Positions 158 to 36,741 of a stretch of 64,000 nucleotides of DNA are shown one piece after another. The position numbers and the translations under genes are program-made. The stretch's first letter is position 1. Each line of letters begins with the position of its first letter. The stretch is from an uncultured Chloroflexia bacterium. GTDB taxonomy: Bacteria > Chloroflexota > Limnocylindria > Limnocylindrales > CSP1-4. The DNA is taken from assembly GCA_963755285.1 (NCBI GenBank), contig CAVWJB010000005.1, forward strand, positions 2,987 to 66,986. Direction: 5' to 3'. The notes beneath the pieces were generated by a model. That model saw only the letters and a program-made list of their open reading frames with translations, made no database searches and was not told where the DNA came from.

Positions 158-1549
158 TCAGCCCGGCGGGATGTTCAGGTTGAACCGGAAGACGTTGTCG
201 GGGTCGTAGCGTCCCTTGACCGCGGCGAGCCGCTGGAAGCGCTCGGGGCCAAAGGCCGCCCTGACGCGTTCGGGCGTCTCGTCGACCGGGGCGTAATTGG
301 CGTAGCCGGCGCCGGACAGGGACCCGGGCTTGAGCGCGTCGGCGAGATCGCGGACCCATCCGATCTGGTTCTCGTCCGCCGTGGGGTCGTCCCAGATCGC
401 GATCCCGCTCACGTTCCAGCGGGCAGCCCGCTGACCGAACGCGGCGCCGTCGACCGGCTCACGTCGCGCGGCCCCCGTGATGGCCTCGATGAGGACGAAC
501 GAATCAGGCCCCGGTGGCCGGTCCATTGCCGCGACGATCGCTTCGATCATCGTGCTGTCGAGCGCCCGGACGAAGTGCCCCTTCCAGTAGTGACGCAGGC
601 CGAACGGAAGCTCTCCGCCGAGCGCCTGGACCTCGAGATAGGTCATCTGACGCAGGCCGTCCTCCACGATCGGCAGCGCCCGAAGTGGACGGATGACGCC
701 CTCCGCGGCCTCCGGGGTCCCCTGATAGGCGACCGTCACGCTGAACACCGCCGGCGACGGTCGGTCGTGATCGGACGTCTCGAGCTCCTCGAGCGCGGCC
801 ACCGTGGCCGGACCTCCGGCGAAGAGCGCGAGCTCTGCCGGTCCGTCCTCGGCGAGCTCGGCCATCGTCGCCAGCGCCGCGCCGGCGGCTGCGATCGGGA
901 TGGCGAGGTGGCCCGAGTAGAGCGGCCCGACCGGCTGCAGCGCGAACTCGAAGCGGGTCACGACCCCGAAGTTGCCGCCCCCGCCACGCAGGGCCCACAG
1001 CAACTCGGGGTCCCCGCCCTCGCCGGCGATGACGACCGAGCCGTCGGCCGTCACGACCTCGGCCCGGACGAGCGAGTCGCAGGTGAGGCCGCCAGTGCCC
1101 ATGAGGAACCCGAGCCCGCCTCCGAGGGCCAGCCCGCCGACGCCCGTGTCGCCGAACGTGCCGCCCGGCATGGCCAGGCCATGGGCGGTCGTCGCCACGT
1201 CGACGTCGAGCCAGAGTGCGCCGCCGCCGACGACCGCCCGCCTGCGGACCGGATCGACGCTCACCTCGCGCATGTGGCGGAGATCGATGACGAGGGCCTC
1301 GTTGGCCGTTGCGTGGCCGGCGACGCTGTGGCCGCCGCCGCGAACCGCGATCGGCAATCCGGCGTCGCCCGCCCAGCGCACCGCTGCCACGACGTCCGCC
1401 GTCGAGCGCGGCCGGGCGATCGCTGCCGGGCGCCGGTCGATCGTCGCGTTGAACGTCGAGCGCGCCTCGTCGTAGCCGTCGTCGTCGGGCAGGACGACGT
1501 CGCCCGTGATCGAGCTTCGCAGGGCGTCCAGCCGGACGTCGATGGTCAT
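158..1549 (-). CDS. FAD-binding oxidoreductase (berberine-bridge-enzyme-like)
   Basis: RGGGHS FAD motif, LRGGGGNFGVVT, C-terminal YANY...KGRYDPDNVF; GGAGG SD before ATG at 1549. Confidence 0.9.
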   Translation of the reverse strand: MTIDVRLDALRSSITGDVVLPDDDGYDEARSTFNATIDRRPAAIARPRSTADVVAAVRWAGDAGLPIAVRGGGHSVAGHATANEALVIDLRHMREVSVDPVRRRAVVGGGALWLDVDVATTAHGLAMPGGTFGDTGVGGLALGGGLGFLMGTGGLTCDSLVRAEVVTADGSVVIAGEGGDPELLWALRGGGGNFGVVTRFEFALQPVGPLYSGHLAIPIAAAGAALATMAELAEDGPAELALFAGGPATVAALEELETSDHDRPSPAVFSVTVAYQGTPEAAEGVIRPLRALPIVEDGLRQMTYLEVQALGGELPFGLRHYWKGHFVRALDSTMIEAIVAAMDRPPGPDSFVLIEAITGAARREPVDGAAFGQRAARWNVSGIAIWDDPTADENQIGWVRDLADALKPGSLSGAGYANYAPVDETPERVRAAFGPERFQRLAAVKGRYDPDNVFRFNLNIPPG

Positions 1550-1625
1550 CGAGCACTCCTCCCGTGCCGTCCCTCGCGGCTCTTGGTCGAGCATGACCAG
1601 CCGCACGACGAAGTCAATCGAATAC

Positions 1626-2828
1626 TCACGCGGCTGCGACGAGCTCGTCTCGTTCCGACGGCAGGCGTCCGACGAGGACGAGCGTCCCGGCACTCGCCAG
1701 GCTGAGCACGACCGTACCCAGCATCGCGACCGTCAGGCCGACCGTCACCGACAGGAAGCCCATGATCGGCGGGTAGACGATCGAGCCAACGACCGCGGCA
1801 CTCGCGAGGAGGCCACTGACGGCGGCCGTCCGATCGGGGTAGCGATCGCCGGCGACAGCCATGATCATCGGGTACACCGGGCCGGTCGCGACACCGGCCA
1901 GGCCGAACAGCGCGATGGACACGGGCAGCGACGGCGCCAGGATCGCCAGGCCGAGGGCGGCCCCGGTGGCGGCGCTCGTCGTCGCCGCGAACCGGACGTG
2001 GTCGAACCGGTCGGCGATCCGCGCCGAGATGAGGCGACCGAGCGTCAAACCGGCCCAGAAGAGGGCGAGGGCGGTCGTGGCCGTGCTCAGCGGTGCCGGC
2101 TCCAGGAATCGGACGAGCCAGCTCGAGACCCCGACCTCGGCGGCCACGTAGCAGGCGATGGCCACGGCCAGCAGGAGGAGCGGTGCCGCCAGCCGTCCAG
2201 GCGCCCAGCGAAGACGGCCACCCTCGGCCGGGCGGCCACCGATCGCGGCGGTGTGTCGGCCATCGGGCATCTTGACCACCGCGAACAGGAAGGCCACCAC
2301 GAGCGCCGCCAGCCCGGTCGCGAGCAGGATTCGCTGCCACTCGACGCCGCTCTCCACGAGCCGCCCTACTGCGAGGGGGGCGGACAGGGCGCCGAGGCTG
2401 AAGAAGACGTGGAGCAGGTTGAGGGACCGCCCGCGGCCGGCTGGGAAGAGGTTCAGGAAGAGCCCGTTCATGCCGCCGTCGATCACGCCGGCACCCAGGC
2501 CGGCCGGCAGGGCGGCGAGGACGAACACGACCCACGACGGCGAGACTCCGAGGGCGATGAAGCCGGCGCCGTGGAGCGCCACGCCGAGCGACAGCACGGT
2601 CCTCCGCCCGAGCCGCTCGGTCACGAGGCCGCCCCCCAGCGATCCGGTCGCGTAGACCAGGGCGTAGACGAAGTAGAAGAGTCCGATCCCGGCGTCGGAC
2701 TGGTCGAAGGCTCCCTCGACCGAGCGGATCAGCGAGGGAACGAGCAGGCCGCTCCAGCCGAGCAGCACGAATGCCACGCAGCCGAGGACGCCGGCTGCAG
2801 GCGGCCACGACCGTGACGAGCGGGTCAT
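1626..2828 (-). CDS. MFS transporter
   Basis: About 12 hydrophobic segments; GLVTERLGRR and ARIADRFD MFS loop motifs. Confidence 0.9.
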   Translation of the reverse strand: MTRSSRSWPPAAGVLGCVAFVLLGWSGLLVPSLIRSVEGAFDQSDAGIGLFYFVYALVYATGSLGGGLVTERLGRRTVLSLGVALHGAGFIALGVSPSWVVFVLAALPAGLGAGVIDGGMNGLFLNLFPAGRGRSLNLLHVFFSLGALSAPLAVGRLVESGVEWQRILLATGLAALVVAFLFAVVKMPDGRHTAAIGGRPAEGGRLRWAPGRLAAPLLLLAVAIACYVAAEVGVSSWLVRFLEPAPLSTATTALALFWAGLTLGRLISARIADRFDHVRFAATTSAATGAALGLAILAPSLPVSIALFGLAGVATGPVYPMIMAVAGDRYPDRTAAVSGLLASAAVVGSIVYPPIMGFLSVTVGLTVAMLGTVVLSLASAGTLVLVGRLPSERDELVAAA

Positions 2829-26357: not shown

Positions 26358-27164
26358 TCAGAAGAGGGTCAGCTGGTCGGCGTCCGGCTCCGGCGGCTGG
26401 CCGGACGGCATGAACATCGGGGCCGGGTCCTGGGCCTGGGCGAGCTCGGCGGGCGGGACATCCCCGCCCGGGTCGGTCAGCGAGACGACGATGAGCGCGA
26501 CCTCCGCGGGCGCGGGAGCCGGTGACGGCCGTTCGGGCTCGGCGGGCAGCGGCTCGTCAGGCGCCTGCTCGCGCCGGGCCCGAGCCGCGAGGAGCGTCGA
26601 CGGAAGCCCGGCGATGTCCGTTTCGAGCGTGGCCCGGTTCGAGCCGTCGTAGAGCGCGAAGGCCGGGTGGTACATCGCGAACACGAGCGCGTCGCGAGCG
26701 CCGGTCGCCGGATCGGCCGGACGCGACGTGCCGTGGACTCGCCCGATCCGCTCGCCGGGCATGAACACGCCGAGCGAGTGCTTGCCGGCGGTCACGACGA
26801 CGGCCGGGTCGAGCACCTCGAGCTGGCGGCGCAGGAACGGTGCGCAGGCGGCGATCTCGTCGGGCTGGGGGTCCCGGTTGCCGGGTGGCCAGCACTTCAC
26901 GACGTTCGTGATGAACACGTCGTCACGGCGCCAGCCGACCGACTCGATGAGCTCGGTCAGCAGCCGACCGGAGGCACCCACGAACGGACGGCCGGCCTGG
27001 TTCTCGTCGCGGCCCGGTCCCTCGCCGACGAACACGACCTCGGTGTCCGGGCTCCCCTCCCCCGGCACCGTCCTGGCGCGCTGTTCGTGAAGGCGGCAGC
27101 GGGTGCACTCGCGGATCTCGGCCGCGATCGCCTCGAGCGCGGCGCCGCGCTCCGGGTCGGTCAC
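26358..27164 (-). CDS. Family 4 uracil-DNA glycosylase
   Basis: CTRCRL, VGEGPG, GRPFVG, NVVKC, YHPA; GTGA overlap with asd. Confidence 0.92.
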   Translation of the reverse strand: MTDPERGAALEAIAAEIRECTRCRLHEQRARTVPGEGSPDTEVVFVGEGPGRDENQAGRPFVGASGRLLTELIESVGWRRDDVFITNVVKCWPPGNRDPQPDEIAACAPFLRRQLEVLDPAVVVTAGKHSLGVFMPGERIGRVHGTSRPADPATGARDALVFAMYHPAFALYDGSNRATLETDIAGLPSTLLAARARREQAPDEPLPAEPERPSPAPAPAEVALIVVSLTDPGGDVPPAELAQAQDPAPMFMPSGQPPEPDADQLTLF

Positions 27165-28225
27165 ACCGCGCTCCCGACGGCGGCCCGGGCGGCCGCGGGC
27201 CGGACCCAGCCGCGGCGGACGAGGATCTCGGCGATCTCGACGGCATTCGTCGCGGCGCCCTTGCGCAGGTTGTCGCTGACGATCCACAGGGCCAGGCCAC
27301 GACCGTCGCCGATCGACTGGTCGCGGCGCACCCGACCGACATAGATCTCGTCGTGGCCGGCGGCGTCGATCGCGAGCGGATAGACGTGTTCGGCCGGGTT
27401 GTCCTGGACGACCACCCCGGGGACGGCCGCGAACAGCTCGCGCGCCCGCTCGGGCGAGATCGGATCGCGGGTCTCGACGTGGACCGCCTCGGAGTGGCTG
27501 GTCACGACCGGCACCCGCACGGCGGTGCACGAGATCCGGAGGTCCGGGAGGTGGAGGATCTTGCGGCTCTCGGTGACGACCTTCCATTCCTCCTTGGTGT
27601 AGCCGTTGTCGAGGAAGACGTCGATCTCGGGCAGCGCGTTGAACGCGATCTGGTGCGGGTAGACCGAGGCGGTCAGCGCCTCGCCGGCGACGTGGGCGCG
27701 GATCTGCCCTTCGAGCTCGGCGATCGCCTCGACGCCCGTCCCGGACACGCTCTGATACGTGTCGACGACGACCCGCTCGAGGCCGACCGCGTCGCGGAGC
27801 GCCATGAGGATCGGGGCCAGCTGCATCGTCGAGCAGTTCGGGTTGGCGACGATCCCCTCGTGCTGGGCCACGTCGGCCGGGTTGACCTGGCTGACGACGA
27901 GCGGGACGCCGGGCGCCATCCGCCAGGCGCTCGAGTTGTCGATGACGGTCGCCCCGTGGGCGACGGCGGCAGGAGCGAGGATCTCGGAGACGGCTCCGCC
28001 GGCGGAGAACAGGGCGATGTCGACCCCGTCGAAGGCCTCGGGCAGCGCCTCGACCACGTCGTGGGTGGTCCCGGCGACCGACACCGTCGAGCCGGCCGAT
28101 CGGCCGGAGGCCATCAGCCGCAGCTCGCCGAGCGGGAAGGCCCGCTCGCGGAGCACCTGGATCATCGTCCGACCGACGACGCCGGTGGCGCCGACGACCG
28201 CAACCGTGAGCGGTCTGGGGGTCAT
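27161..28225 (-). CDS. asd: Aspartate-semialdehyde dehydrogenase
   Basis: GATGVVG, ANPNCST, DNLRKGAA. Confidence 0.96.
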   Translation of the reverse strand: MTPRPLTVAVVGATGVVGRTMIQVLRERAFPLGELRLMASGRSAGSTVSVAGTTHDVVEALPEAFDGVDIALFSAGGAVSEILAPAAVAHGATVIDNSSAWRMAPGVPLVVSQVNPADVAQHEGIVANPNCSTMQLAPILMALRDAVGLERVVVDTYQSVSGTGVEAIAELEGQIRAHVAGEALTASVYPHQIAFNALPEIDVFLDNGYTKEEWKVVTESRKILHLPDLRISCTAVRVPVVTSHSEAVHVETRDPISPERARELFAAVPGVVVQDNPAEHVYPLAIDAAGHDEIYVGRVRRDQSIGDGRGLALWIVSDNLRKGAATNAVEIAEILVRRGWVRPAAARAAVGSAV

Positions 28226-28349: not shown

Positions 28350-30935
28350 TCAGACGGGTTCCTTGGCCAGGTGACGCTGCATCGCGGCCTTGCGCGACAG
28401 GTTGATCCGTCCCTGGCGGTCGATCTCGGTCACGACGACCATCACCTCGTCGCCGACGGACACGACGTCCTCGACGGTCGGCACGTGGTAGTCGGCGAGC
28501 TCGCCGATCCGGACGAGGCCTTCCTTGCCGGGCAGGATCTCGACGAACGCGCCGAAGCCCATGATCCGGGTCACCTTGCCCAGGTAGAGCGAGCCGATCT
28601 CGACCTCGCGGGTCAGCGACTCGATCCACTGGATCGCCTTGCGGCTGTTCTCACCGGAGACGGCGGCGATCTCGACCGAGCCGTCGTCCTCGACGTTGAT
28701 CTCGGTCCCGGTCTCCTCCTGGATCTTGCGGATCATCGAGCCACCCTTGCCGATGATGTCGCGGATCTTCTCGGGGTTGATCTTGATCGTGACGATGCGC
28801 GGCGCGAAGTCGCTCATCCCCTCGCGGGCGGCGGGCAGGACCTCGGTCATCTTGGCGAGGATCTCGAGTCGGGCCGCGAGGGCCTGCTTGAGGCCGCCGC
28901 GGATGATCGCCTCGTTGATCCCCTGGACCTTGATGTCCATCTGGAGGGCGGTGATCCCGTCCTTGGTGCCGGTCACCTTGAAGTCCATGTCCCCGAACGA
29001 ATCCTCCTTGCCGAGGATGTCGGTCAGGACCGCGAACCGGCCGTCGGGCTCGCTGATGAGGCCCATCGCCGCACCGGCGACCGGGGCCGAGATCGGCACA
29101 CCGGCGTCCATCAGGGCGAGGGTCGAGCCGCAGGTCGAGGCCATCGACGTGGAGCCGTTCGAGGTGACGCACTCGCTGACGAGCCGGATGACGTACGGGA
29201 AGTCCTCCTGGCTCGGCAGGACCGGAAGGAGCGCCCGCTCGGCGAGGTGGCCGTGGCCGATCTCGCGCCGGCCGGGCCCGCGCATCATCTTGTTCTCGCC
29301 GGTGCTGTAGGGCGGCATGTTGTAGTGGTGGATGTAGCGCTTCTCGGTCTTCGGGCTGATCGTGTCGATCCGCTGGACATCCGACGAAGCACCGAGCGTG
29401 GCCACGGTCAGCGCCTGGGTCTCACCGCGGGTGAACAGGCCCGAGCCGTGGGCGCGGGGCAGGATCCCGACCTCGACCGAGATCGGGCGGAGCTCGTCGA
29501 CGGCGCGGCCGTCCATCCGGATGCCCTCGCTCAGGACGAGCTCGCGGACGGTCTTCTTGTGGACGAGGCTGAACAGGCTCTTGCTGACGCGCGCCTGGCG
29601 GCGTGCCGCGTCGAGCAGGCCGGGGGCGTCGCCGCCGGTGCGGTACGCCTTGACCGACGCCGTGATCCCCTCGCTGAGCGTGGCGAGCCGGTTCGGCACG
29701 TCGTCGGCGAAGAGCTGGAGGAGCTGAGCCGTCGCCTGGGCGTCGGGCAGCGCGCGATGAGCGTCACTGAGCTCCACCCCGAAGAACCGGGCCAGATCGC
29801 CGAGCTTGTAGCTCTCCGCCCAGTCCGGGTAGGCCTCGCGGGCGAGGACGAGCGTGTCGAGGTACGTTCCCGCCTCGAACCGGAACCCGTCGCCGAGCGC
29901 CTGCTCGAGGAAGCCCAGGTCGAACCCGATGTTGTGCCCGACGAGCGTCGCATCCCCGGCGAAAGCGCGGAACTTCTCGGCGGCCTCCTTCGGCGTCGGC
30001 GCACCCTTGACGTCCTTGTCGGTGATCCCGTGCATCTGGTGGCCGATGATCGAGCGGCCCGGGTTCACGAGCGTCGAGAACGTGTCGGCGATCTTGCCGC
30101 CCTTGATCCGGACGGCGCCGATCTCGAGCAGGTCGGCCATCTTCGGGTCGCGGCCGGTCGTTTCGACGTCGACGACGACGAACTCGGCCTTCGCCTCGAC
30201 GGCCTTGGCAAAGGTCAGGACCGAGTCGGTGCCGGGCTCGAGGTACGGCAGGCGCTTCGGCTTGCCGACGGCGGCCTGGAGCTCGAGCTGGAGGTCGATC
30301 AGCGGCTGGATGGCGCGGTGACCGAAGAGGATCGCCTCGGCCATCACGTCCTCGGGCAGGAGCTTCGCGCCGGCCTCGACCATCATGATCGCGTCGCGGG
30401 TCCCGGACACGATGAGGTCGAGCTCGGAATCGGCCAGCTGGCTGTAGGTCGGGTTGACGACGAATTCGCCGTCGATCCGGCCGACGCGGACCGCGCCGAT
30501 CGGTCCCTGGAACGGGATCTCGCTGATCGTCAGGGCGGCCGACGCGGCGATCGTCCCGAGGATGTCGGGATCGTTCTCCTGGTCGGTCGACAGGACCGTG
30601 ATCACGAGCTGGACGTCGTCCTTGTAGCCGTCCGGGAAGAGCGGGCGGATCGGGCGGTCGGTCAGCCGGGCGGCGAGGATCGCCGCTTCGGACGGCCGGG
30701 CTTCGCGCTTGATGAAGCCGCCGGGGATCTTGCCCGCGGCGTACATCCGCTCCTCGAAATCGACGGTGAGCGGGAAGAAGTCGAGGCCGGGGCGAGGCTC
30801 CGACCGGTTGGCGGTCCCGAGGACCATGGTGTCGCCGTAGCGGACGGTGACCGATCCGCCGGCGAGTCGGGCGAGCTTGCCGGTCTCGATGGTCAGCGGT
30901 CGACCACCGAATTGCGTCTCGAATGTCTGAGACAC
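28350..30935 (-). CDS. pnp: Polynucleotide phosphorylase with inserted DEDDh exonuclease domain
   Basis: FFPLTVDFEE, DRPIRPLF, RREIGHG, SNGSTSMAS, GDMDFKV, KH and S1; insert DVETTG/HNIGFD/HRALPDA. Confidence 0.96.
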   Translation of the reverse strand: MSQTFETQFGGRPLTIETGKLARLAGGSVTVRYGDTMVLGTANRSEPRPGLDFFPLTVDFEERMYAAGKIPGGFIKREARPSEAAILAARLTDRPIRPLFPDGYKDDVQLVITVLSTDQENDPDILGTIAASAALTISEIPFQGPIGAVRVGRIDGEFVVNPTYSQLADSELDLIVSGTRDAIMMVEAGAKLLPEDVMAEAILFGHRAIQPLIDLQLELQAAVGKPKRLPYLEPGTDSVLTFAKAVEAKAEFVVVDVETTGRDPKMADLLEIGAVRIKGGKIADTFSTLVNPGRSIIGHQMHGITDKDVKGAPTPKEAAEKFRAFAGDATLVGHNIGFDLGFLEQALGDGFRFEAGTYLDTLVLAREAYPDWAESYKLGDLARFFGVELSDAHRALPDAQATAQLLQLFADDVPNRLATLSEGITASVKAYRTGGDAPGLLDAARRQARVSKSLFSLVHKKTVRELVLSEGIRMDGRAVDELRPISVEVGILPRAHGSGLFTRGETQALTVATLGASSDVQRIDTISPKTEKRYIHHYNMPPYSTGENKMMRGPGRREIGHGHLAERALLPVLPSQEDFPYVIRLVSECVTSNGSTSMASTCGSTLALMDAGVPISAPVAGAAMGLISEPDGRFAVLTDILGKEDSFGDMDFKVTGTKDGITALQMDIKVQGINEAIIRGGLKQALAARLEILAKMTEVLPAAREGMSDFAPRIVTIKINPEKIRDIIGKGGSMIRKIQEETGTEINVEDDGSVEIAAVSGENSRKAIQWIESLTREVEIGSLYLGKVTRIMGFGAFVEILPGKEGLVRIGELADYHVPTVEDVVSVGDEVMVVVTEIDRQGRINLSRKAAMQRHLAKEPV

Positions 30936-31055: not shown

Positions 31056-31325
31056 CTAGCGGCGGAGTCCCAACCGTCCGATGACGGTGCGGTAGCGCGC
31101 GTTGTCCTTCTTGATCAGGTAGGCAAGAAGGCGGCGGCGCTGTCCGACGAGCTTGAGGAGGCCGCGGCGCGAATGGTTGTCCTTGGGAAAGCTCCTCAGG
31201 TGCCCCGTCAGCTCCTTGATCCGCTCGGTCAGGAGCGCGATCTGGACCTCTGGCGAGCCGGTGTCACCGTCTGCGGTGGCATACGCGGCCATGACCTGTT
31301 GCTTCTGTTCCCGCGCGAGCGGCAC
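31056..31325 (-). CDS. rpsO: 30S ribosomal protein S15
   Basis: [26 protein letters not shown]. Confidence 0.97.
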
Positions 31326-31357
31326 TCGGTCCTCCGAACACGAACTGAGATAGACGT

Positions 31358-32208: not shown

Positions 32209-33189
32209 TCAGGAGGCGCCCGTCGCGACCGCGACAGGCGGTGGGGGGCCGACGAGGACCTTGTCCGGCGCGAGGCGCCCGTCCCGGATCGCACCGACGG
32301 CCACCGGCCGGCCGCTCCCGTCGACGGCGATCAACCGCTCGTCCGGGGAGCCGACCCGTGGCAGCCCCGCCGCGGGTCGGACGAACTGGCCGCGGCCGAC
32401 GGCCTCGACCTCGGCGTCGCTCAGGACGACCCGCGGGAACCGGTCGAGGCCGGTGTCGAGCGGCAGGAGCAGCGCCGCGACCGCGGGTGGCTCCTCGGCC
32501 GCCGCGGCCCGGATCGACTCGAGCGGGTGAGCCATCTCGAGCGTGAACGAGCCGGATGCCGTCCTGGTGAGCGCCCCGAGATACGCCCCGCCACCGGTCG
32601 CGAGTCCGACGTCTCGCGCGATCGACCGGACGTACGTTCCGGCCGAGCAGTCGACCTCGACGATCGCGATCGGGCGGTCGGAATCCGTGTCGTCCCAGCC
32701 GACGAGGTCGAGCCGATGGACGGTCACCTCGCGCGGCGCGAGCGTCGGCGTCTCGCCCGACCGGGCGAGGGCGTACGCCCGGCGGCCGCCAACCTTGATC
32801 GCCGAGAACGCCGGCGGCTGCTGACGGATCGGACCGACGAGCGCGTTCAGGGCGGTCTCGACGGCCCGCCGCGTCGGGCCGGGGCCCGGCATCGGCGTCA
32901 GCTCGCCATCGAGGTCGTCGGTCGTCGAGCTCGCCCCGAAGCAGATCGTGGCTCGGTACGACTTCCGATCGCCGAGGTGGTACTCGACGAGGCGGGTCGC
33001 CTGCCCGAGGAACACCGGCAGCACGCCGGTGGCGAACGGATCGAGCGTTCCACCGTGGCCGACCCGGCGAGTCTGGGCAAGGCGCCGCACGAGCGCGACG
33101 ACGTCGTGCGAGGTGGGACCGGCCGGCTTCCTCACGACCAGGATCCCGTCCAGGCCGGGACCATCTCCCGGGCGCGCCCGCCGGCTCAT
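32209..33189 (-). CDS. truB: tRNA pseudouridine(55) synthase
   Basis: [32 protein letters not shown]. Confidence 0.96.
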
Positions 33190-34208
33190 CGGACGACCGC
33201 GGCCGCCAGCCGGCGGGCCTCCCCAAGCACCGCTTCGCGGGCTGCCTCGAGGGGCAGCTCGACGGTCGCCCCGGCAGCCCGGGCGTGCCCGCCGCCACCG
33301 AACGCTCCGGTCAGGACCGTCGCGTCGACCCCGCCGGGCTTCGTCCGGACGCTGATCCGGGTCGCCGAGCCCAGCTCCTTGAACAGGATCGCGACCTCGG
33401 CCCGCTCGGCCTGGGCGAGCAGGTCGATGATCCCCTCGGAATGAGCGGGGCCGGTCCCGGTCGAGGCCAGGTCGGAGTCGAGCAGCGTCGACCAGATCAC
33501 CCGGCCGTCGTCGGCATGGTCGAGCCGATCGAGGACCCGACCGAAGAGCCGGAGCTGGACATCGGGCTTCGAGCGGTAGAGCCGGCGCGAGATCTCGCTC
33601 AACGGCGCGCCGGCCTCGACGAGCGCGGCCGCGACGGCCAGCGTCCGCGGGGTCGCGTTCGGGTGGGCGAACGTCGCCGTGTCCATGACGATGCCCGCCA
33701 TCAGCACGGTCGCGAGCGCACCGTCGGCCGCCGTCAGCGGGACGCCGAGCCGGCTCGCGAGCAGGGCCGTCATCTCGCACGTGGCGGCCGCGTCGGGATC
33801 GATCCAGTCGGTCGGCGAATCGGCCTCGTTCGACAGGTGATGGTCGACGACGACCCGGGGCAGGCCGTTGAACAGCGCGGCGTGGCGCTGGCGGACCGCG
33901 CCGACCCGGTCGAGCGAGCCGCAGTCGACGATCGCGAGCAGGTCGTAGCTGGCGCCCGGCTCGGGGTCGGTCCGGACCCGCTCGATCGCCGGCAGGAATG
34001 CGTACAGCTCCGGAACGGGGTCCGTGCAGACGGCCGTCGCCCGGCCGCCGCGCGCCTCGACGACGGTCACGAGAGCAAGCGCCGCGCCGAGCGTGTCCGC
34101 GTCCGGGTTCTCGTGGCTGACCACCAGGACGTTCCGGGCCCCGGCCACGGCCTCGACGACCGGCACCGGGACCGTCCCGGCCCAGTCGGTGAGGTCGACC
34201 GAGGTCAT
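33186..34208 (-). CDS. nrnA: DHH/DHHA1 oligoribonuclease / pAp phosphatase
   Basis: HENPDAD, DHH, DT, GGGGHARAAG. Confidence 0.92.
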   Translation of the reverse strand: MTSVDLTDWAGTVPVPVVEAVAGARNVLVVSHENPDADTLGAALALVTVVEARGGRATAVCTDPVPELYAFLPAIERVRTDPEPGASYDLLAIVDCGSLDRVGAVRQRHAALFNGLPRVVVDHHLSNEADSPTDWIDPDAAATCEMTALLASRLGVPLTAADGALATVLMAGIVMDTATFAHPNATPRTLAVAAALVEAGAPLSEISRRLYRSKPDVQLRLFGRVLDRLDHADDGRVIWSTLLDSDLASTGTGPAHSEGIIDLLAQAERAEVAILFKELGSATRISVRTKPGGVDATVLTGAFGGGGHARAAGATVELPLEAAREAVLGEARRLAAAVVR

Positions 34209-34771
34209 CGCTTGGGTTTGCGGGTGCCGCCGCGCCGGTCGTGGGGGTGCTTGCCCCGGCTCTGACTCGCCGCCGTGGTCGGGCCGCTCGGTCGACGGCG
34301 ACGACGCCGGGCCGGAGGCGGTGGCTCGGCGGCCGGTGGTGGCTCGTCGGGCAGGTCGCCCTCGTGGCGGAGCCGGACGACCGGCGTCGGGAGCGTCTCC
34401 TCGTCTGGCGCGGCGTCGTCGGTCGATGCCTCGCCGGCCTCGATCTGCCCGAGCAGATGGAGGACCCGCGTGCCACGTTCGATCGTGTCGTCGAGCCGGA
34501 CGTGCAGGACCGGGATCCGCCGGAGCCGGAGCCGCCCGCCGAGCTCGCGCCTGACGAACGGCATCGCGTGCTCGAGGGCCGCGATCGTCTCGGTCCGCTC
34601 GCCGTGCTGACCGATGACGCTGACCCAGACCCGGGCATGACCGAGGTCCGGCGCGGTCTCGACCTTGGTGACGGTCGCGAAGCCGATCCGCGGGTCCTTG
34701 ACCTCGCGGCTCAGGATCGCCCCGATCTCCTGCCGGAGGAGCTCATCGATCCGATCGGTTCGTTGAGACAT
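34205..34771 (-). CDS. rbfA: Ribosome-binding factor A with C-terminal extension
   Basis: EVKDPRIGF, LRLRRIPVLH. Confidence 0.93.
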   Translation of the reverse strand: MSQRTDRIDELLRQEIGAILSREVKDPRIGFATVTKVETAPDLGHARVWVSVIGQHGERTETIAALEHAMPFVRRELGGRLRLRRIPVLHVRLDDTIERGTRVLHLLGQIEAGEASTDDAAPDEETLPTPVVRLRHEGDLPDEPPPAAEPPPPARRRRRRPSGPTTAASQSRGKHPHDRRGGTRKPKR

Positions 34772-34827
34772 CGCTGGAGCTGGCAACCTCGATCGCGAAG
34801 TGAGACTCGCCCTCCGAAGGCCGAGCC

Positions 34828-36741
34828 TCAACGCTCGGCCTGAGGACTCCGGCTGACCGTCTTCTGGGTGAAGCACTCGATGACGTCGCCCTCCTCCAGG
34901 TCGTGGAAGTTGGCCAGTCCGATGCCGCACTCGAAGTTCTTCTCGACCTCGCGGACGTCGTCGCGGAACCGCCGGAGCGATTCGATCCGATCGGTCGCGA
35001 TGACCTTGCCGCTGCGCCAGACGCGGGCACCGCCGCGGACGATCCGGCCGTCGGTCACGTAGCACCCGGCGATGACGGTGTTCTTGCCGACCCGGAAGAT
35101 CTGGCGGACCTCGGCGCGGCCCTCGACGACCTCGACGATCTCGGGTTCGAGCAGGCCCTTGAGCGCCGCATCGATGTCGTCGGTCAGCTTGTAGATGATG
35201 TCGTAGGTGCGGACGTCGACACCCTCGGCCTCGGCGGCCCGACGGGCCGTCTCGGTGATCTTCGTGTTGAACCCGACGACGATCGCGTCCGAGGCGGTCG
35301 CCAGCATGATGTCGTTGTCGGTGATGTCGCCGGCGCCCTCGTGGAGGACGTTGAGCCTGACGTCCTCGGTCGACAGCTGGTCGAGGGCGTGGGTGATCGC
35401 CCCGAGCGAGCCGGACACGTCGGCCTTGAGGATGATCCTGAGCTCCTTCGCCTGGCCGGCCTGGATCTGGCGGTAGAGATCCTCGAGCGTCGCTCGGCCG
35501 CTGCCGTCACCGGCCTTCGCCGCGGCGGTGGCCTTGCGCGCCTCGACCATCGCCCGCGCTTCCTTCTCGTCGGGCACCACGCGCAGGATGTCGCCGGCCT
35601 CCGGGACGTCGGACAGGCCGAGCACGACCGCGGGCGTCGATGGACCCGCCTTCGTGATCCGCTTGCCGGACTCGTTCTCGAGGGCGCGGACCTTGCCGTA
35701 CGTCTCGCCGACGACGATGACGTCGCCGACCCGGAGCGTGCCGGTCTGGACGATCGCGGTGGCGACCGGTCCCCGGCCCTTGTCGAGCTGGGCCTCGACG
35801 ATCGTCCCGATCGCGGGGCGCTTCGGGTTCGCCTTGAGCTCCTGGAGATCGGCCACGAGCAGGATCATGTCGAGCAGCTCGTCGAGCCCGAGCCGGGCCT
35901 TGGCCGAAACGGCCACGAGCGGCGTGTCGCCGCCGTACTCCTCGACGATGACGTTCGCCTCGGACAGCTCGGTCTTCACCCGGTCCGGGTTCGCGTCCGG
36001 CTTGTCGATCTTGTTCAGGGCGATGATGATCGGCACCTTGGCCGCCCGGGCGTGATGGATCGCCTCGAGCGTCTGGGGCATGACGCCGTCGTCCGCGGCG
36101 ACGACCACGACCGCGACGTCGGTGACCCGTGCGCCACGCGCCCGCATCGCGGTGAACGCCTCGTGGCCCGGGGTGTCGAGGAAGACGATCCGTCGGCCGT
36201 CCTTCGTCGTGACCTCGCTGGCCCCGATGTGCTGGGTGATGCCGCCTCGCTCGCCGGCCGCGACCTCGGTCGTCCGGATCGCGTCGAGCAGGCTCGTCTT
36301 GCCGTGGTCGACGTGACCCATGACGGTCACGATCGGAGCCCGGGTCTGGAGGAGCGACGCCTCGTCCTCCTCGTAGAGGACTTCCTTGGCCGCCTCGTCC
36401 GGGGCCTCCTCGGCGTCCTTGTCCGTGACACCGGCGGTCACGGCGACCGCCTCGGAGACCTCGTAGCCGAGCTCGCCGGCGACGAGCGCGGCGGTGTCCC
36501 GGTCGATGAGCTGGTTGATCGTCGCGAAGATCCCGCTCTTGATCAGCTCGCGGATCACGTCCGCGGCATTGACCCCGAGGAGCTCGGCGAGCTCCTTGAC
36601 CGTGATCGTGCCGGGCAGCTCGATCGCGCCACGTTCTCGCGGATCCGCGACCTGGACTGCCGCCTGGCCGACGCCACCATCGCGGCGCGGCGGCTTGCGC
36701 GGGCCGCGCCGGCCCCGAGTGCCGCTCCTACTCCTCGCCAC
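34828..36741 (-). CDS. infB: Translation initiation factor IF-2
   Basis: [24 protein letters not shown]. Confidence 0.97.

Follow-up and report, generated by a model that had tools for sequence, protein, structure and literature searches.

Within the window (the whole 64,000-nucleotide stretch of DNA analysed here, taken from the metagenome-type assembly G000, 10 contigs, 88% complete), a single open reading frame, which opens with GTG and is free of internal stops, encodes a PNPase of 861 residues (Table 1). The gene belongs to a cluster composed of rbfA, an NrnA-like gene, truB, ribF, rpsO and pnp, and the rpsO-pnp order is common to canonical PNPase and to the insert-bearing form described below. 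Its status as the sole pnp of the window, in the usual position behind rpsO, had been proposed in the initial annotation and was borne out by the Ribosomal_S15 match upstream and by a whole-genome search, in which no second pnp was found in G000; of the weak partial matches elsewhere, two were S1-like stretches and one, on contig C1, resembled RNase PH. In the text, f1 (which includes G000), f2 and f4 designate the families of the class whose PNPase bears the insert, and f3 and f5 their insert-free sister families.

Table 1. Features of the pnp locus (positions in the window; residues refer to the 861-residue protein)
Feature	Position	Strand	Basis
pnp, 861-residue PNPase with DEDDh insert	28350..30935	-	ORF list, TIGR03591, Foldseek
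PH1 core (RNase_PH + RNase_PH_C), residues ~1-227	30255..30935	-	Pfam and sister alignment
Linker into the insert, residues 228-250, one predicted helix (237-247)	30186..30254	-	Alignment and AlphaFold2
DEDDh 3'-5' exonuclease domain (predicted activity), residues 251-410	29706..30185	-	PF00929, E 4.3e-30
Helical segment past the insert, residues 411-470; end part is the PNPase helical-domain remnant	29526..29705	-	Model and PF03726
PH2 core with phosphorolytic active site, residues 471-700	28836..29525	-	Pfam RNase_PH and motifs
KH domain, residues 715-772	28620..28793	-	PF00013 (KH_1), E 4.6e-12
S1 domain, residues 778-849	28389..28604	-	PF00575, E 9.3e-18
rpsO (ribosomal protein S15), directly upstream of pnp	31056..31340 (predicted start approximate)	-	PF00312 (Ribosomal_S15), E 2.4e-34
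NrnA-like gene (DHH/DHHA1)	33186-34208		Weak match, 79.8 bits (cut-off 350)

Domain layout of the PNPase

Two copies each of RNase_PH (PF01138, total E 1.3e-54, the second at residues 481-614) and RNase_PH_C (PF03725, one of them at residues 144-208) were recognized by Pfam, and no helicase family was found in the protein with this database. Among the NCBIfam models, the PNPase equivalog TIGR03591 was matched in two stretches with 951.6 bits (cut-off 525), and NF008805 with 947.5 bits (cut-off 471). The PH2 core contains SNGSTSMAS at residues 592-600 and DSFGDMD at residues 645-651, the latter including GDMD (648-651). SNGSTSMAS and GDMD, which we take to be the phosphorolytic active-site motifs of PNPase PH2, were invariant in 132/132 insert-bearing sequences; with the KH and S1 matches, this agrees with the earlier description of these PNPase elements as intact.

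To our knowledge, few domain architectures in RNA biology are as invariant as that of PNPase, from bacteria through to the mitochondria of humans. The present protein shares two PH cores, the PH2 motifs, KH and S1 with the canonical enzymes of E. coli (7ogl/3gcm), C. crescentus (4aim) and S. antibioticus (1e3p); unlike them, it is about 160 residues longer and carries a complete DEDDh domain between PH1 and PH2. An AlphaFold2 model of the PNPase with its insert was obtained with a mean pLDDT of 89.7 and a pTM of 0.82. When this model was compared with the PDB by Foldseek, the chains listed were all PNPases (E down to 2e-77, TM-score 0.73-0.94 normalised to the target), with lengths of 494-730 residues, and the inserted domain was present in none of them.

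The alignment with the insert-free sisters was colinear as far as a GKPK motif near residue 227. The linker that follows (residues 228-250) is missing in the f3/f5 sisters and is the least conserved segment, with a mean column conservation of 0.71. Beyond the insert, helices were predicted by AlphaFold2 at residues 395-433, 437-448 and 452-470. The helical-domain family PF03726 was matched by its positions 55-80 alone, at residues 452-477 and with 20.1 bits where 24.6 are required, whereas positions 4-81 and 6-81 were matched in the sisters L013 and L015, respectively. Compared with canonical PNPase, PF03726 is thus shrunk to its last ~26 positions, and when the helical domain of a sister was compared by BLASTP with the segments flanking the insert, no alignment was obtained. 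As judged by profile matching, an intact all-alpha helical domain (PF03726) is not present between the cores. The initial placement of the insert within the helical domain therefore holds for its location between PH1 and PH2, but not for a domain left otherwise intact, most of PF03726 being unmatched.

The inserted DEDDh domain and its relatives

The RNase_T family PF00929 was matched over its whole length (model positions 1-164 of 164) by residues 253-406, with 105.9 bits for a cut-off of 24. All the DEDDh motifs could be read from the translation, namely DVETTG with D256 and E258 (ExoI), HNIGFD with D339 (ExoII) and HRALPD with H393 and D398 (ExoIII), as well as the HGIT motif with H302, in exact accordance with the numbering first given. 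In addition, the dnaq subfamily-domain model TIGR00573 was matched above its cut-off (85.3 against 71.5 bits). By domain match and motifs, the insert is a DEDDh exonuclease of the DnaQ superfamily, for which hydrolytic activity is predicted.

D256, E258, D339, H393 and D398 were found invariant in 132/132 insert-bearing sequences, and H334 and H302 likewise, although the identity of the insert between families falls to 45-54%. The dN/dS ratio amounted to 0.16-0.61 for the insert (10 pairs), compared with 0.09-0.27 for the PH cores, and the insert is retained in the small f2 genomes of 1.0-1.4 Mb. The insert is under purifying selection, and both catalytic centres look intact at the sequence level. 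The natural reading of two such conserved centres is a 3'-5' exonuclease with a dual mode, phosphorolytic at one site and hydrolytic at the other. In another explanation, the DEDDh fold would be a structural or regulatory module that binds nucleotides or oligonucleotides, gates PH2 as the helical domain does, or docks a partner. As most of the helical domain is replaced or disrupted (PF03726 positions 55-80 being left), its structural role may have been taken over by the insert, whose dN/dS is moreover above that of the PH cores. However, inactivated DEDD domains usually lose their catalytic residues, and the invariance of the five catalytic residues and of both histidines in so divergent a domain renders a non-catalytic role improbable.

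The best NCBIfam matches of the insert (best 25 of 63 families) were the PRK07883 DEDD exonuclease, DinG and PolC, the first rank being held by NF005906, the PRK07883 type (residues 249-443, E 2.6e-44). The best PDB matches were the PolC exonuclease, DinG, Cas2-DEDDh and DnaQ; the closest solved sequences were the PolC exonuclease 2p1j (E 5.1e-25) and DinG 8zef (E 1.6e-18). Neither Orn nor RNase T figured among the PDB matches with E ≤ 1e-5 (10 sequences) or among the best 25 of the 63 NCBIfam families. This weakens the Orn-like and RNase T-like roles that had been offered initially, since the relatives of the insert are of the PolC, DinG and DnaQ types. The epsilon equivalogs remained below their cut-offs (TIGR01406, 76.9 against 222.7; NF004316, 69.5 against 196; NF004964, 79.9 against 236). 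In sequence, the insert thus resembles the proofreading or repair exonucleases of PolC, of DinG and of GIY-YIG-linked proteins.

Each of these relatives differs from the insert-bearing PNPase in its setting. The proofreading domain of PolC (T. maritima 2p1j; 9qpc) is the closest solved sequence and all motifs align with it, but the host of the PolC domain is a DNA polymerase, in which it edits the nascent DNA strand. The PolC exonuclease is itself a DEDDh domain inserted within another domain of its host protein. Proteins of the PRK07883 type associate DEDDh with GIY-YIG (and UVR); they provide the best NCBIfam match and their Chloroflexota members are close relatives, the architecture being confirmed in 3/3 of those tested. 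Unlike them, the PNPase lacks GIY-YIG and UVR and scores 151.5 bits, whereas 495 are demanded by the equivalog. Together with these proteins, DinG with an exonuclease domain (exo-DinG; 43-48% identity, architecture confirmed in 2/2 tested) makes up the nearest relatives outside PNPase in the phylum. DinG of the Bacillus/Staphylococcus type (8zef) belongs to the same DEDDh subtype; in contrast to DinG, no helicase domain is present here and the host is an RNA phosphorylase.

In the maximum-likelihood DEDDh tree, the insert was placed outside the DinG exonuclease domains, without nesting among them (split support 87/89), on a long stem (0.64). AU tests in which the inserts were grouped with the DinG exonuclease domains of the class itself, or with all DinG-type domains, a group named after the tree had been inspected, gave p = 0.057 and p = 0.028, respectively. 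As the inserts do not group with the DinG exonuclease domains of their class on this tree, direct descent from these domains is improbable.

Distribution and inheritance of the insertion

Continuous full-length matches to the insert-bearing PNPase were obtained in 41/41 genomes of the order searched, which cover two families. At the level of the class, the match was continuous in 44/44 genomes of f1 in addition to G000, in 6/6 of f2 and in f4, where 49/50 genomes had a match, whereas split matches, in frames of ~740-820 residues, were observed in f3 (48/49) and f5 (1/1). In a sample of 301 genomes of the phylum, continuous matches were limited to the 33 genomes of f1, f2 and f4; an ordinary PNPase of ~740 residues was found in the two sister families and in every other Chloroflexota family sampled. 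The class, phylum, PF00929, DinG and close-DEDDh genome tallies include some unpublished genomes.

A tree of the PNPase core, calculated without the insert columns, separated 45 insert-bearing from 45 insert-free rows by one change with a support of 100. The insert-bearing PNPases occupy one branch, consistent with a single origin. In the DEDDh tree, 18 inserts formed one clade (100/99), in which the split between f4 and f1+f2 mirrors the taxonomy. On the evidence of these sequences, the insert is vertically inherited since the ancestor of the three families.

Given the metagenome-type and incomplete source assembly, a chimera, in which a DnaQ-like gene fragment had been wrongly fused into pnp during assembly or binning, was considered. 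The unbroken frame first reported, devoid of stops, was confirmed, and the GC content (0.67-0.73) showed no step across either insert junction. Positions 29446-30363 are covered without gaps by a 918-nt DNA contig of an independent run; among contigs of RNA libraries, some span junction 1 and others fall inside the insert. Both junctions are therefore bridged by independent metagenome contigs, as the initial annotation had asked for, and the insert is found in relatives, through the order and into a third family. Furthermore, PF00929 and PF01138 were both present in all 120 database clusters among those listed. The same continuous frame in all 41 relatives of the order and in about 100 genomes over three families, together with the clusters and the independent contigs, refutes the chimera, whose probability we consider negligible.

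The literature searches gave no description of a PNPase with a DEDDh insert, in line with what was first supposed, and the architecture is apparently undescribed so far. It is a domain insertion built from known parts.

Complementarity with DinG and possible functions

In G000, a single PF00929 match was found, located inside pnp, and exactly one match was counted in 38/45 f1 genomes and 46/50 f4 genomes. Genomes of f3 and f5 possess an exo-DinG instead: their single PF00929 match is that of DinG, and they have no stand-alone DnaQ. When the class was searched with a sister-family DinG, full-length matches were obtained in f3 (48/49) and f5 (1/1); in f1, f2 and f4, the same query matched by its exonuclease part only, inside pnp. 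The identity between the insert and the sister-family DinG exonuclease is 38-49%. Likewise, Helicase_C_2 was detected in two of five genomes, those of f3 and f5 only, and was not found in the insert-bearing G000, G025 and G042. DinG and insert-bearing PNPase thus occupy complementary sets of genomes across the class. This correlation represents one evolutionary split (f1+f2+f4 against f3+f5) and could be a coincidence. There are also other Chloroflexota families lacking both a close DEDDh domain and the PNPase insert, 41 of the 301 genomes being without a match at E ≤ 1e-10.

The fact that the insert is the only PF00929 match in G000 and in most f1 and f4 genomes, its TIGR00573 score and its closeness to the PolC proofreading domain could also suggest an editing exonuclease acting in trans for the replicative polymerase, or another replication-linked editor, with PNPase as its carrier. 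However, the scores of the epsilon equivalogs lie far under their cut-offs. Moreover, a stand-alone DnaQ is equally missing in f3 and f5, where the PF00929 match is DinG, so that the class evidently replicates without a classical epsilon subunit. Such a proofreading role appears very unlikely.

Passages of a study on B. subtilis (PMC12525004) describe the DEDD domain of DinG as degrading ssDNA in the 3'-5' direction and the RNA strand of R-loops, and name PNPase as a further exonuclease able to process such 3' tails. Action on ssDNA in repair, another of the roles first suggested, is strengthened by the distribution complementary to exo-DinG, the function itself being a prediction. With slightly better than even confidence, we favour a sole PNPase that would be a bifunctional, phosphorolytic and hydrolytic, 3'-5' exonuclease, in which the DEDDh domain may cover tasks of the DinG-exonuclease type. 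According to this scheme, the insertion of a complete DEDDh domain took place in the ancestor of the three families, close to where the helical linker between the PH cores begins. Two centres for 3'-5' degradation, independent of each other, would then be present in each subunit of the ring: PH2, which depends on phosphate and is reached via the central channel, and a metal-dependent hydrolytic DEDDh site at the face or periphery of the helical domain. The latter would perform the phosphate-independent trimming of 3' ends handled elsewhere by a DinG-type exonuclease; PNPase would be the platform that binds the nucleic acid, in a lineage whose searched genomes yielded no exo-DinG. PNPase is a trimer, so three DEDDh modules would be present per ring. 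In canonical PNPase, KH/S1 and the helical domain occupy opposite faces, so that KH/S1 may or may not be able to feed the DEDDh site.

In a stronger version, which we regard as rather unlikely, the single DnaQ-type exonuclease function of the cell would have shifted from the DinG helicase to PNPase, either by functional replacement or by relocation of the domain followed by fast divergence, and one trimer would couple RNA decay and genome maintenance. Such a machine would bind its substrates via the ring and KH/S1, and its targets for phosphate-free hydrolysis would be 3' tails of ssDNA or the RNA strand of R-loops. If this were true, PNPase would be a DNA-repair and R-loop nuclease by design and not by side activity.

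Alternatively, the DEDDh domain could act on RNA only and finish its decay, by hydrolysing short oligoribonucleotides (as Orn or REXO2) or by trimming 3' ends near structures when phosphate is limiting (as RNase T). In the Orn and RNase T subfamilies, a homodimer forms the substrate site. The host is indeed an RNA-decay enzyme in an RNA-related gene cluster. PNPase leaves short end products, Orn and REXO2, which clear these, are DEDDh enzymes, and the side on which the PH2 active site releases its end products is close to the helical domain. Furthermore, RNase II/R of the RNB family was not found in 5/5 genomes of the class, in which processive 3' decay of RNA may therefore depend mainly on PNPase. 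However, RNB is equally missing in the insert-free sisters among these genomes. The NrnA-like DHH/DHHA1 gene adjoins the pnp cluster in 5/5 genomes tested, with or without the insert, and leaves no visible nanoRNase gap. In addition, neither Orn nor RNase T appeared among the best PDB and NCBIfam matches given above, and the nearest relatives of the insert act on DNA. An RNA-only role is accordingly doubtful.

The association of an RNase PH-like ring with a DEDD nuclease has precedents. In the eukaryotic nuclear exosome, an RNase PH-like ring is associated with the DEDD nuclease Rrp6; unlike the present case, in which the domain is DEDDh and both centres look active from their motifs, Rrp6 is of the DEDDy type and the ring is catalytically inactive. 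In the mitochondrial pathway of PNPase plus REXO2 (PMC7261184), an RNase PH-type ring is likewise paired with a hydrolytic DEDD exonuclease. The DEDD nuclease forms a polypeptide of its own in both cases, whereas here the two centres are fused in a single chain.

The predicted second centre, chemically different from the first, has been carried by PNPase since the ancestor of the three families, with all its catalytic residues kept, in a large and widespread clade of uncultured Chloroflexota from soil and freshwater. Should both centres prove active, the protein would unite phosphorolytic and hydrolytic 3'-5' exonuclease activities naturally in one chain. It would then offer a handle on the limits of PNPase (phosphate supply, end products, structured ends, non-RNA substrates), on whether its reported role in DNA repair can turn into a selected function, and on how insertions are accommodated and exploited by the helical domain. 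The complementarity with exo-DinG provides a testable case of one nuclease function on two very different scaffolds.

At NCBI, close homologues bear the label Candidatus Limnocylindrales or Chloroflexota. The annotation of these proteins is split, which should be kept in mind: many are named 'DNA polymerase III epsilon subunit family exonuclease' by JGI, and NCBI names them plain PNPase.

Architecture of the gene and its authenticity

The initial annotation had reported, in the window, an 861-aa PNPase carrying a DEDDh 3'-5' exonuclease domain. This architecture was borne out by the unbroken reading frame and by the Pfam and NCBIfam matches (see table), and every motif was found at its annotated position: D256/E258, D339, H393/D398 and the HGIT motif (H302) in the insert, SNGSTSMAS at residues 592-600 and DSFGDMD at residues 645-651. 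Pfam detected two RNase_PH and two RNase_PH_C matches, with the RNase_T domain lying between the two RNase PH cores (PH1 and PH2). The NCBIfam PNPase equivalog TIGR03591 scored 951.6 bits against a cut-off of 525, in two stretches split by the insert. Of PF03726, the model of the PNPase helical domain, no more than positions 55-80 were matched, at residues 452-477 and below cut-off, and no BLASTP alignment was obtained between the helices flanking the insert and the ancestral helical domain. The GC content did not show a step at either junction.

Coordinates of the features discussed (the three last rows are loci fetched from genomes of relatives)
Feature	Position	Strand	Remarks
pnp	28350-30935	-	single unbroken ORF, 861 aa, GTG start
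RNase_T (PF00929), between PH cores	residues 253-406	-	Pfam, model positions 1-164 of 164, E 4.3e-30
KH	residues 715-772	-	Pfam
S1	residues 778-849	-	Pfam
UDG-superfamily domain ORF	26358-27587	-	domain in the C-terminal 247 residues
NrnA-like DHH/DHHA1 gene	33186-34208	-	340 aa; NF053633 79.8 bits vs cut-off 350 (weak)
rbfA	34205-35065	-	with NrnA-like gene, upstream of truB
L028 (G027, f2)	1121-1738	+	second DEDDh besides PNPase insert, ~206-aa open frame
L029 (G173, f1)	867-2192	-	
L030 (G068, f4)	846-2174	+	

In the AlphaFold2 model, computed from a 90-sequence alignment (mean pLDDT 89.7, pTM 0.82), residues 252-384 formed a compact alpha/beta domain, followed by a long helix (395-433) and by helices 437-448 and 452-470 leading into PH2. 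When this model was compared with the PDB by Foldseek, all chains listed were canonical PNPases, 494-730 residues long.

A whole-genome search found the insert-bearing PNPase in 41/41 genomes, which represent eight genera in two families of the source genome's order, most matches being full-length, stop-free and 71-93% identical. Furthermore, PF00929 and PF01138 occurred together in the precomputed Pfam sets of all 120 best database clusters listed, most of which were 860-878 aa long. NCBI labels these clusters as PNPases from MAGs of 'Candidatus Limnocylindrales' or 'Chloroflexota'; the JGI label is often 'DNA polymerase III epsilon subunit family exonuclease'. Among independent public sequencing runs, X2 yielded a 918-nt DNA contig on 29446-30363 which spanned both junctions with 35 mismatches and no gaps, and X1 a 454-nt contig on 29946-30398. 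Contigs from metatranscriptome libraries covered 30063-30333 (X3), 29415-29596 (X8) and, inside the insert, 29893-30083; they do not prove transcription, and the gaps between them (for example 29669-29791 in X3 and X8) are uninformative either way. An assembly chimera, of which unsupported junctions or absence of the insert from relatives had been named beforehand as the signs, was ruled out by the clusters combining both Pfam families, by the 41 relatives, by the class-wide matches and by the independent contigs bridging the two junctions.

Four close homologues in NCBI MAG records bear labels of other phyla (P0024, Verrucomicrobiae; P0093, Acidimicrobiales; P0102, Dormibacteraeota; P0120, Saccharimonadales). 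They are 70-79% identical over the insert region, and their labels are probably binning errors.

The genes around pnp all lie on the minus strand, in the order rbfA, the NrnA-like gene, truB, the FAD-synthetase gene (ribF), rpsO, pnp, asd and a UDG-family gene. The listed frame of the last one begins with about 160 Arg-, Pro- and Gly-rich residues that perhaps do not belong to the protein and reflect a spurious upstream extension of the kind seen in high-GC DNA.

Distribution and origin of the insert

The distribution of the insert was followed through the families of the class (f1-f5) in a sample of 151 genomes. Matches were continuous through the insert in f1 (44/44, in addition to G000, the source genome of the window), in f2 (6/6) and in f4 (49/50 with a match, 63-66% identical). 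In f3 (48/49 with a match) and f5 (1/1), matches came in two pieces, residues ~5-244 and 410-853, within frames of ~740-820 aa. Four pnp genes fetched from these two sister families encoded 736-741 aa, and Pfam found the helical domain PF03726 in full and no RNase_T in the two sister PNPases L013 and L015. The class tallies of matches, of PF00929 and of DinG include unpublished genomes among G102, G121, G125, G130, G139, G145 and G156; without them, the tally of PNPase matches still counts 46 f4 and 45 f3 genomes, and the family-level pattern is independent of them. Across the phylum (301 genomes, with unpublished ones among G217, G313, G338, G386 and G425), continuous matches were restricted to the 33 genomes of f1, f2 and f4, and all other families listed gave the split pattern.

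Of 59,233 matches in a library of 1.84 billion representatives, the best 150 included one full-length, single-stretch match through the insert, P0121 (864 aa); the other single-stretch matches among them were shorter, partial proteins. As for independent DEDDh insertions in other PNPases, PF00929 was detected in 0/10 unusually long PNPases scanned from these 150, their extra length being due to additional S1/KH copies or to unassigned segments. In every ESM Atlas cluster listed that combined RNase_PH and RNase_T, Chloroflexota was the commonest phylum.

Three other PNPases from the same search, P0152 (899 aa), P0177 (944 aa) and P0138 (823 aa), have ~100-170 extra residues at the same place, between RNase_PH_C and the helical domain or PH2. 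These segments did not match any Pfam family at E <= 0.001, and the junction after RNase_PH_C may be a recurrent insertion site. At the C-terminus, P0177 has three KH stretches, and P0131 (914 aa) and P0134 (983 aa) have three S1 stretches each.

A FastTree phylogeny of the PNPase core was calculated after removal of the insert and helical columns, with 45 insert-bearing and 45 insert-free rows. A single change, with a support of 100, explained the two states, and the nearest insert-free rows were the f5 and f3 enzymes. Similarly, in a 66-row tree of DEDDh domains, the 18 PNPase inserts formed one clade (100/99), dividing into f4 and f1+f2 as in the taxonomy. Since the core tree requires one change and the inserts are monophyletic and follow the taxonomy, these results fit a single insertion in the common ancestor of f1, f2 and f4, followed by vertical descent.

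The insert probably does not descend directly from the DinG exonuclease domain of the class itself. Such an ancestry was supported neither by the 66-row tree nor by AU tests (p = 0.057 when the inserts were grouped with the class's own DinG exonuclease domains, and p = 0.028 when they were joined to all DinG-type domains, a group defined post hoc, after the tree had been seen), although the long stem branch leading to the insert clade makes this rejection less than clean. The inserts were placed near small or miscellaneous DEDDh proteins, weakly (83/73). Sporadic 442-443-aa frames with an N-terminal DEDDh domain were observed at L029 and L030, the former also matching TerB weakly. The maximum-likelihood tree puts their domains in the clade adjoining the inserts, with the same weak support. 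The L028 domain was left outside the 66-row tree, its score against the insert being too low.

Kinship of the domain and complementarity with DinG

In NCBIfam, the insert was matched best by PRK07883-type DEDD exonucleases (E 2.6e-44), DinG (1.8e-37) and PolC (3.3e-37). Its score exceeded the cut-off of the dnaq subfamily-domain model and fell far short of those of the epsilon equivalogs. Among sequences of solved structures, the order was the PolC exonuclease 2p1j (5.1e-25), PolC 9qpc, DinG 8zef (1.6e-18), Cas2-DEDDh and DnaQ/epsilon. The nearest non-PNPase relatives in the phylum, 43-48% identical, were frames of 930-960 aa, and the two tested were both exo-DinG (RNase_T+DEAD+DEAD_2+Helicase_C_2); next came RNase_T+GIY-YIG(+UVR) proteins (3/3 tested). 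By homology, the closest relatives of the insert are all replication or repair nucleases.

In G000, the only PF00929 match is the one inside pnp. Exactly one match, in pnp, was also the rule in f1 (38/45 genomes) and f4 (46/50); in f2 this held for one genome of six, the five others having a second match besides that in pnp. Exactly one match was likewise found in 38/49 f3 genomes, where it lies outside pnp in a frame of 890-930 aa. In f3 and f5 this frame corresponds to exo-DinG (RNase_T+DEAD+Helicase_C_2; PRK08074 at ~600 bits, below the cut-off of 789). When such a DinG was used as query against the class, full-length matches were obtained in f3 (48/49) and f5 (1/1). In f1 (45/45, including G000), f2 (6/6) and f4 (49/50), the exonuclease part alone was matched (query residues ~5-170, 37-49% identity), inside pnp. 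Stray exceptions to this split were G120:C10 and a fragment at G074:C69. In addition, Helicase_C_2 was present in the f3 and f5 genomes tested and was not found in G000, G025 and G042.

The PF00929 and DinG distributions taken together indicate that, in nearly all genomes of the class, a single DnaQ-type domain is present and resides in DinG or in PNPase. As this complementarity reflects one evolutionary split, it counts as one event. A close DEDDh domain was missing altogether from 41 of the 301 Chloroflexota genomes.

Conservation and possible role

In 132/132 insert-bearing sequences, D256, E258, H334, D339, H393, D398 and H302 of the insert were invariant, as were SNGSTSMAS and GDMD of PH2. 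The dN/dS values of the DEDDh domain (Nei-Gojobori, 10 pairs) spanned 0.16-0.61 and those of the PH cores 0.09-0.27, which at the sequence level indicates purifying selection on the insert, more relaxed than on the cores. The insert is retained even in the f2 genomes of 1.0-1.4 Mb. Comparative analysis demonstrated that an apparently intact DEDDh domain of the repair/proofreading type was inserted once into PNPase and kept together with both catalytic centres. The PNPase ring would thereby combine three phosphorolytic and three hydrolytic 3'-5' exonuclease sites and, by analogy with established PNPase structures, the hydrolytic ones would lie on its helical-domain face.

If the domain is an active enzyme, the role that we favour, tentatively and at rather less than even chances, is to shorten 3' ssDNA tails, or the RNA of RNA-DNA hybrids, independently of phosphate. 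These are the tasks of a DinG-type exonuclease; PMC12525004 describes B. subtilis DinG as trimming such tails and such RNA, and names PNPase as another 3'-5' exonuclease that can act on 3' tails. The main rival reading, RNA-only finishing or trimming by the DEDDh site, is compatible with this DinG-like role. Neither Orn nor RNase T was found among the PDB sequence matches to the insert at E <= 1e-5.

The initial annotation knew of no description of such a protein, and a PNPase with an exonuclease insert is likewise undescribed in the full-text literature searched, most subscription journals lying outside it; within these bounds, the parts are already known and their combination is new. The terms PNPase, DinG and exonuclease had no match in the text of the main Limnocylindria genomics paper (PMC13212565).

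Finally, the nuclease set was compared in five genomes, one from each of f1, f2, f4, f3 and f5 (G000, G025, G042, G043 and G051; 88-97% complete). Compensation for a missing nanoRNase, by which insert-bearing genomes were expected to lack NrnA or Orn, was rejected: each of the five had three DHHA1 matches, one being an NrnA-like gene of similar size beside the pnp cluster, and the insert-bearing ones showed no special lack. No PF01612 (DEDDy) match above cut-off was found in any of the five. No match to the RNB family (RNase II/R) was found in any of them either, so that PNPase may be their main processive 3'-5' exoribonuclease. The sole difference found between the insert-bearing and insert-free nuclease sets was DinG.
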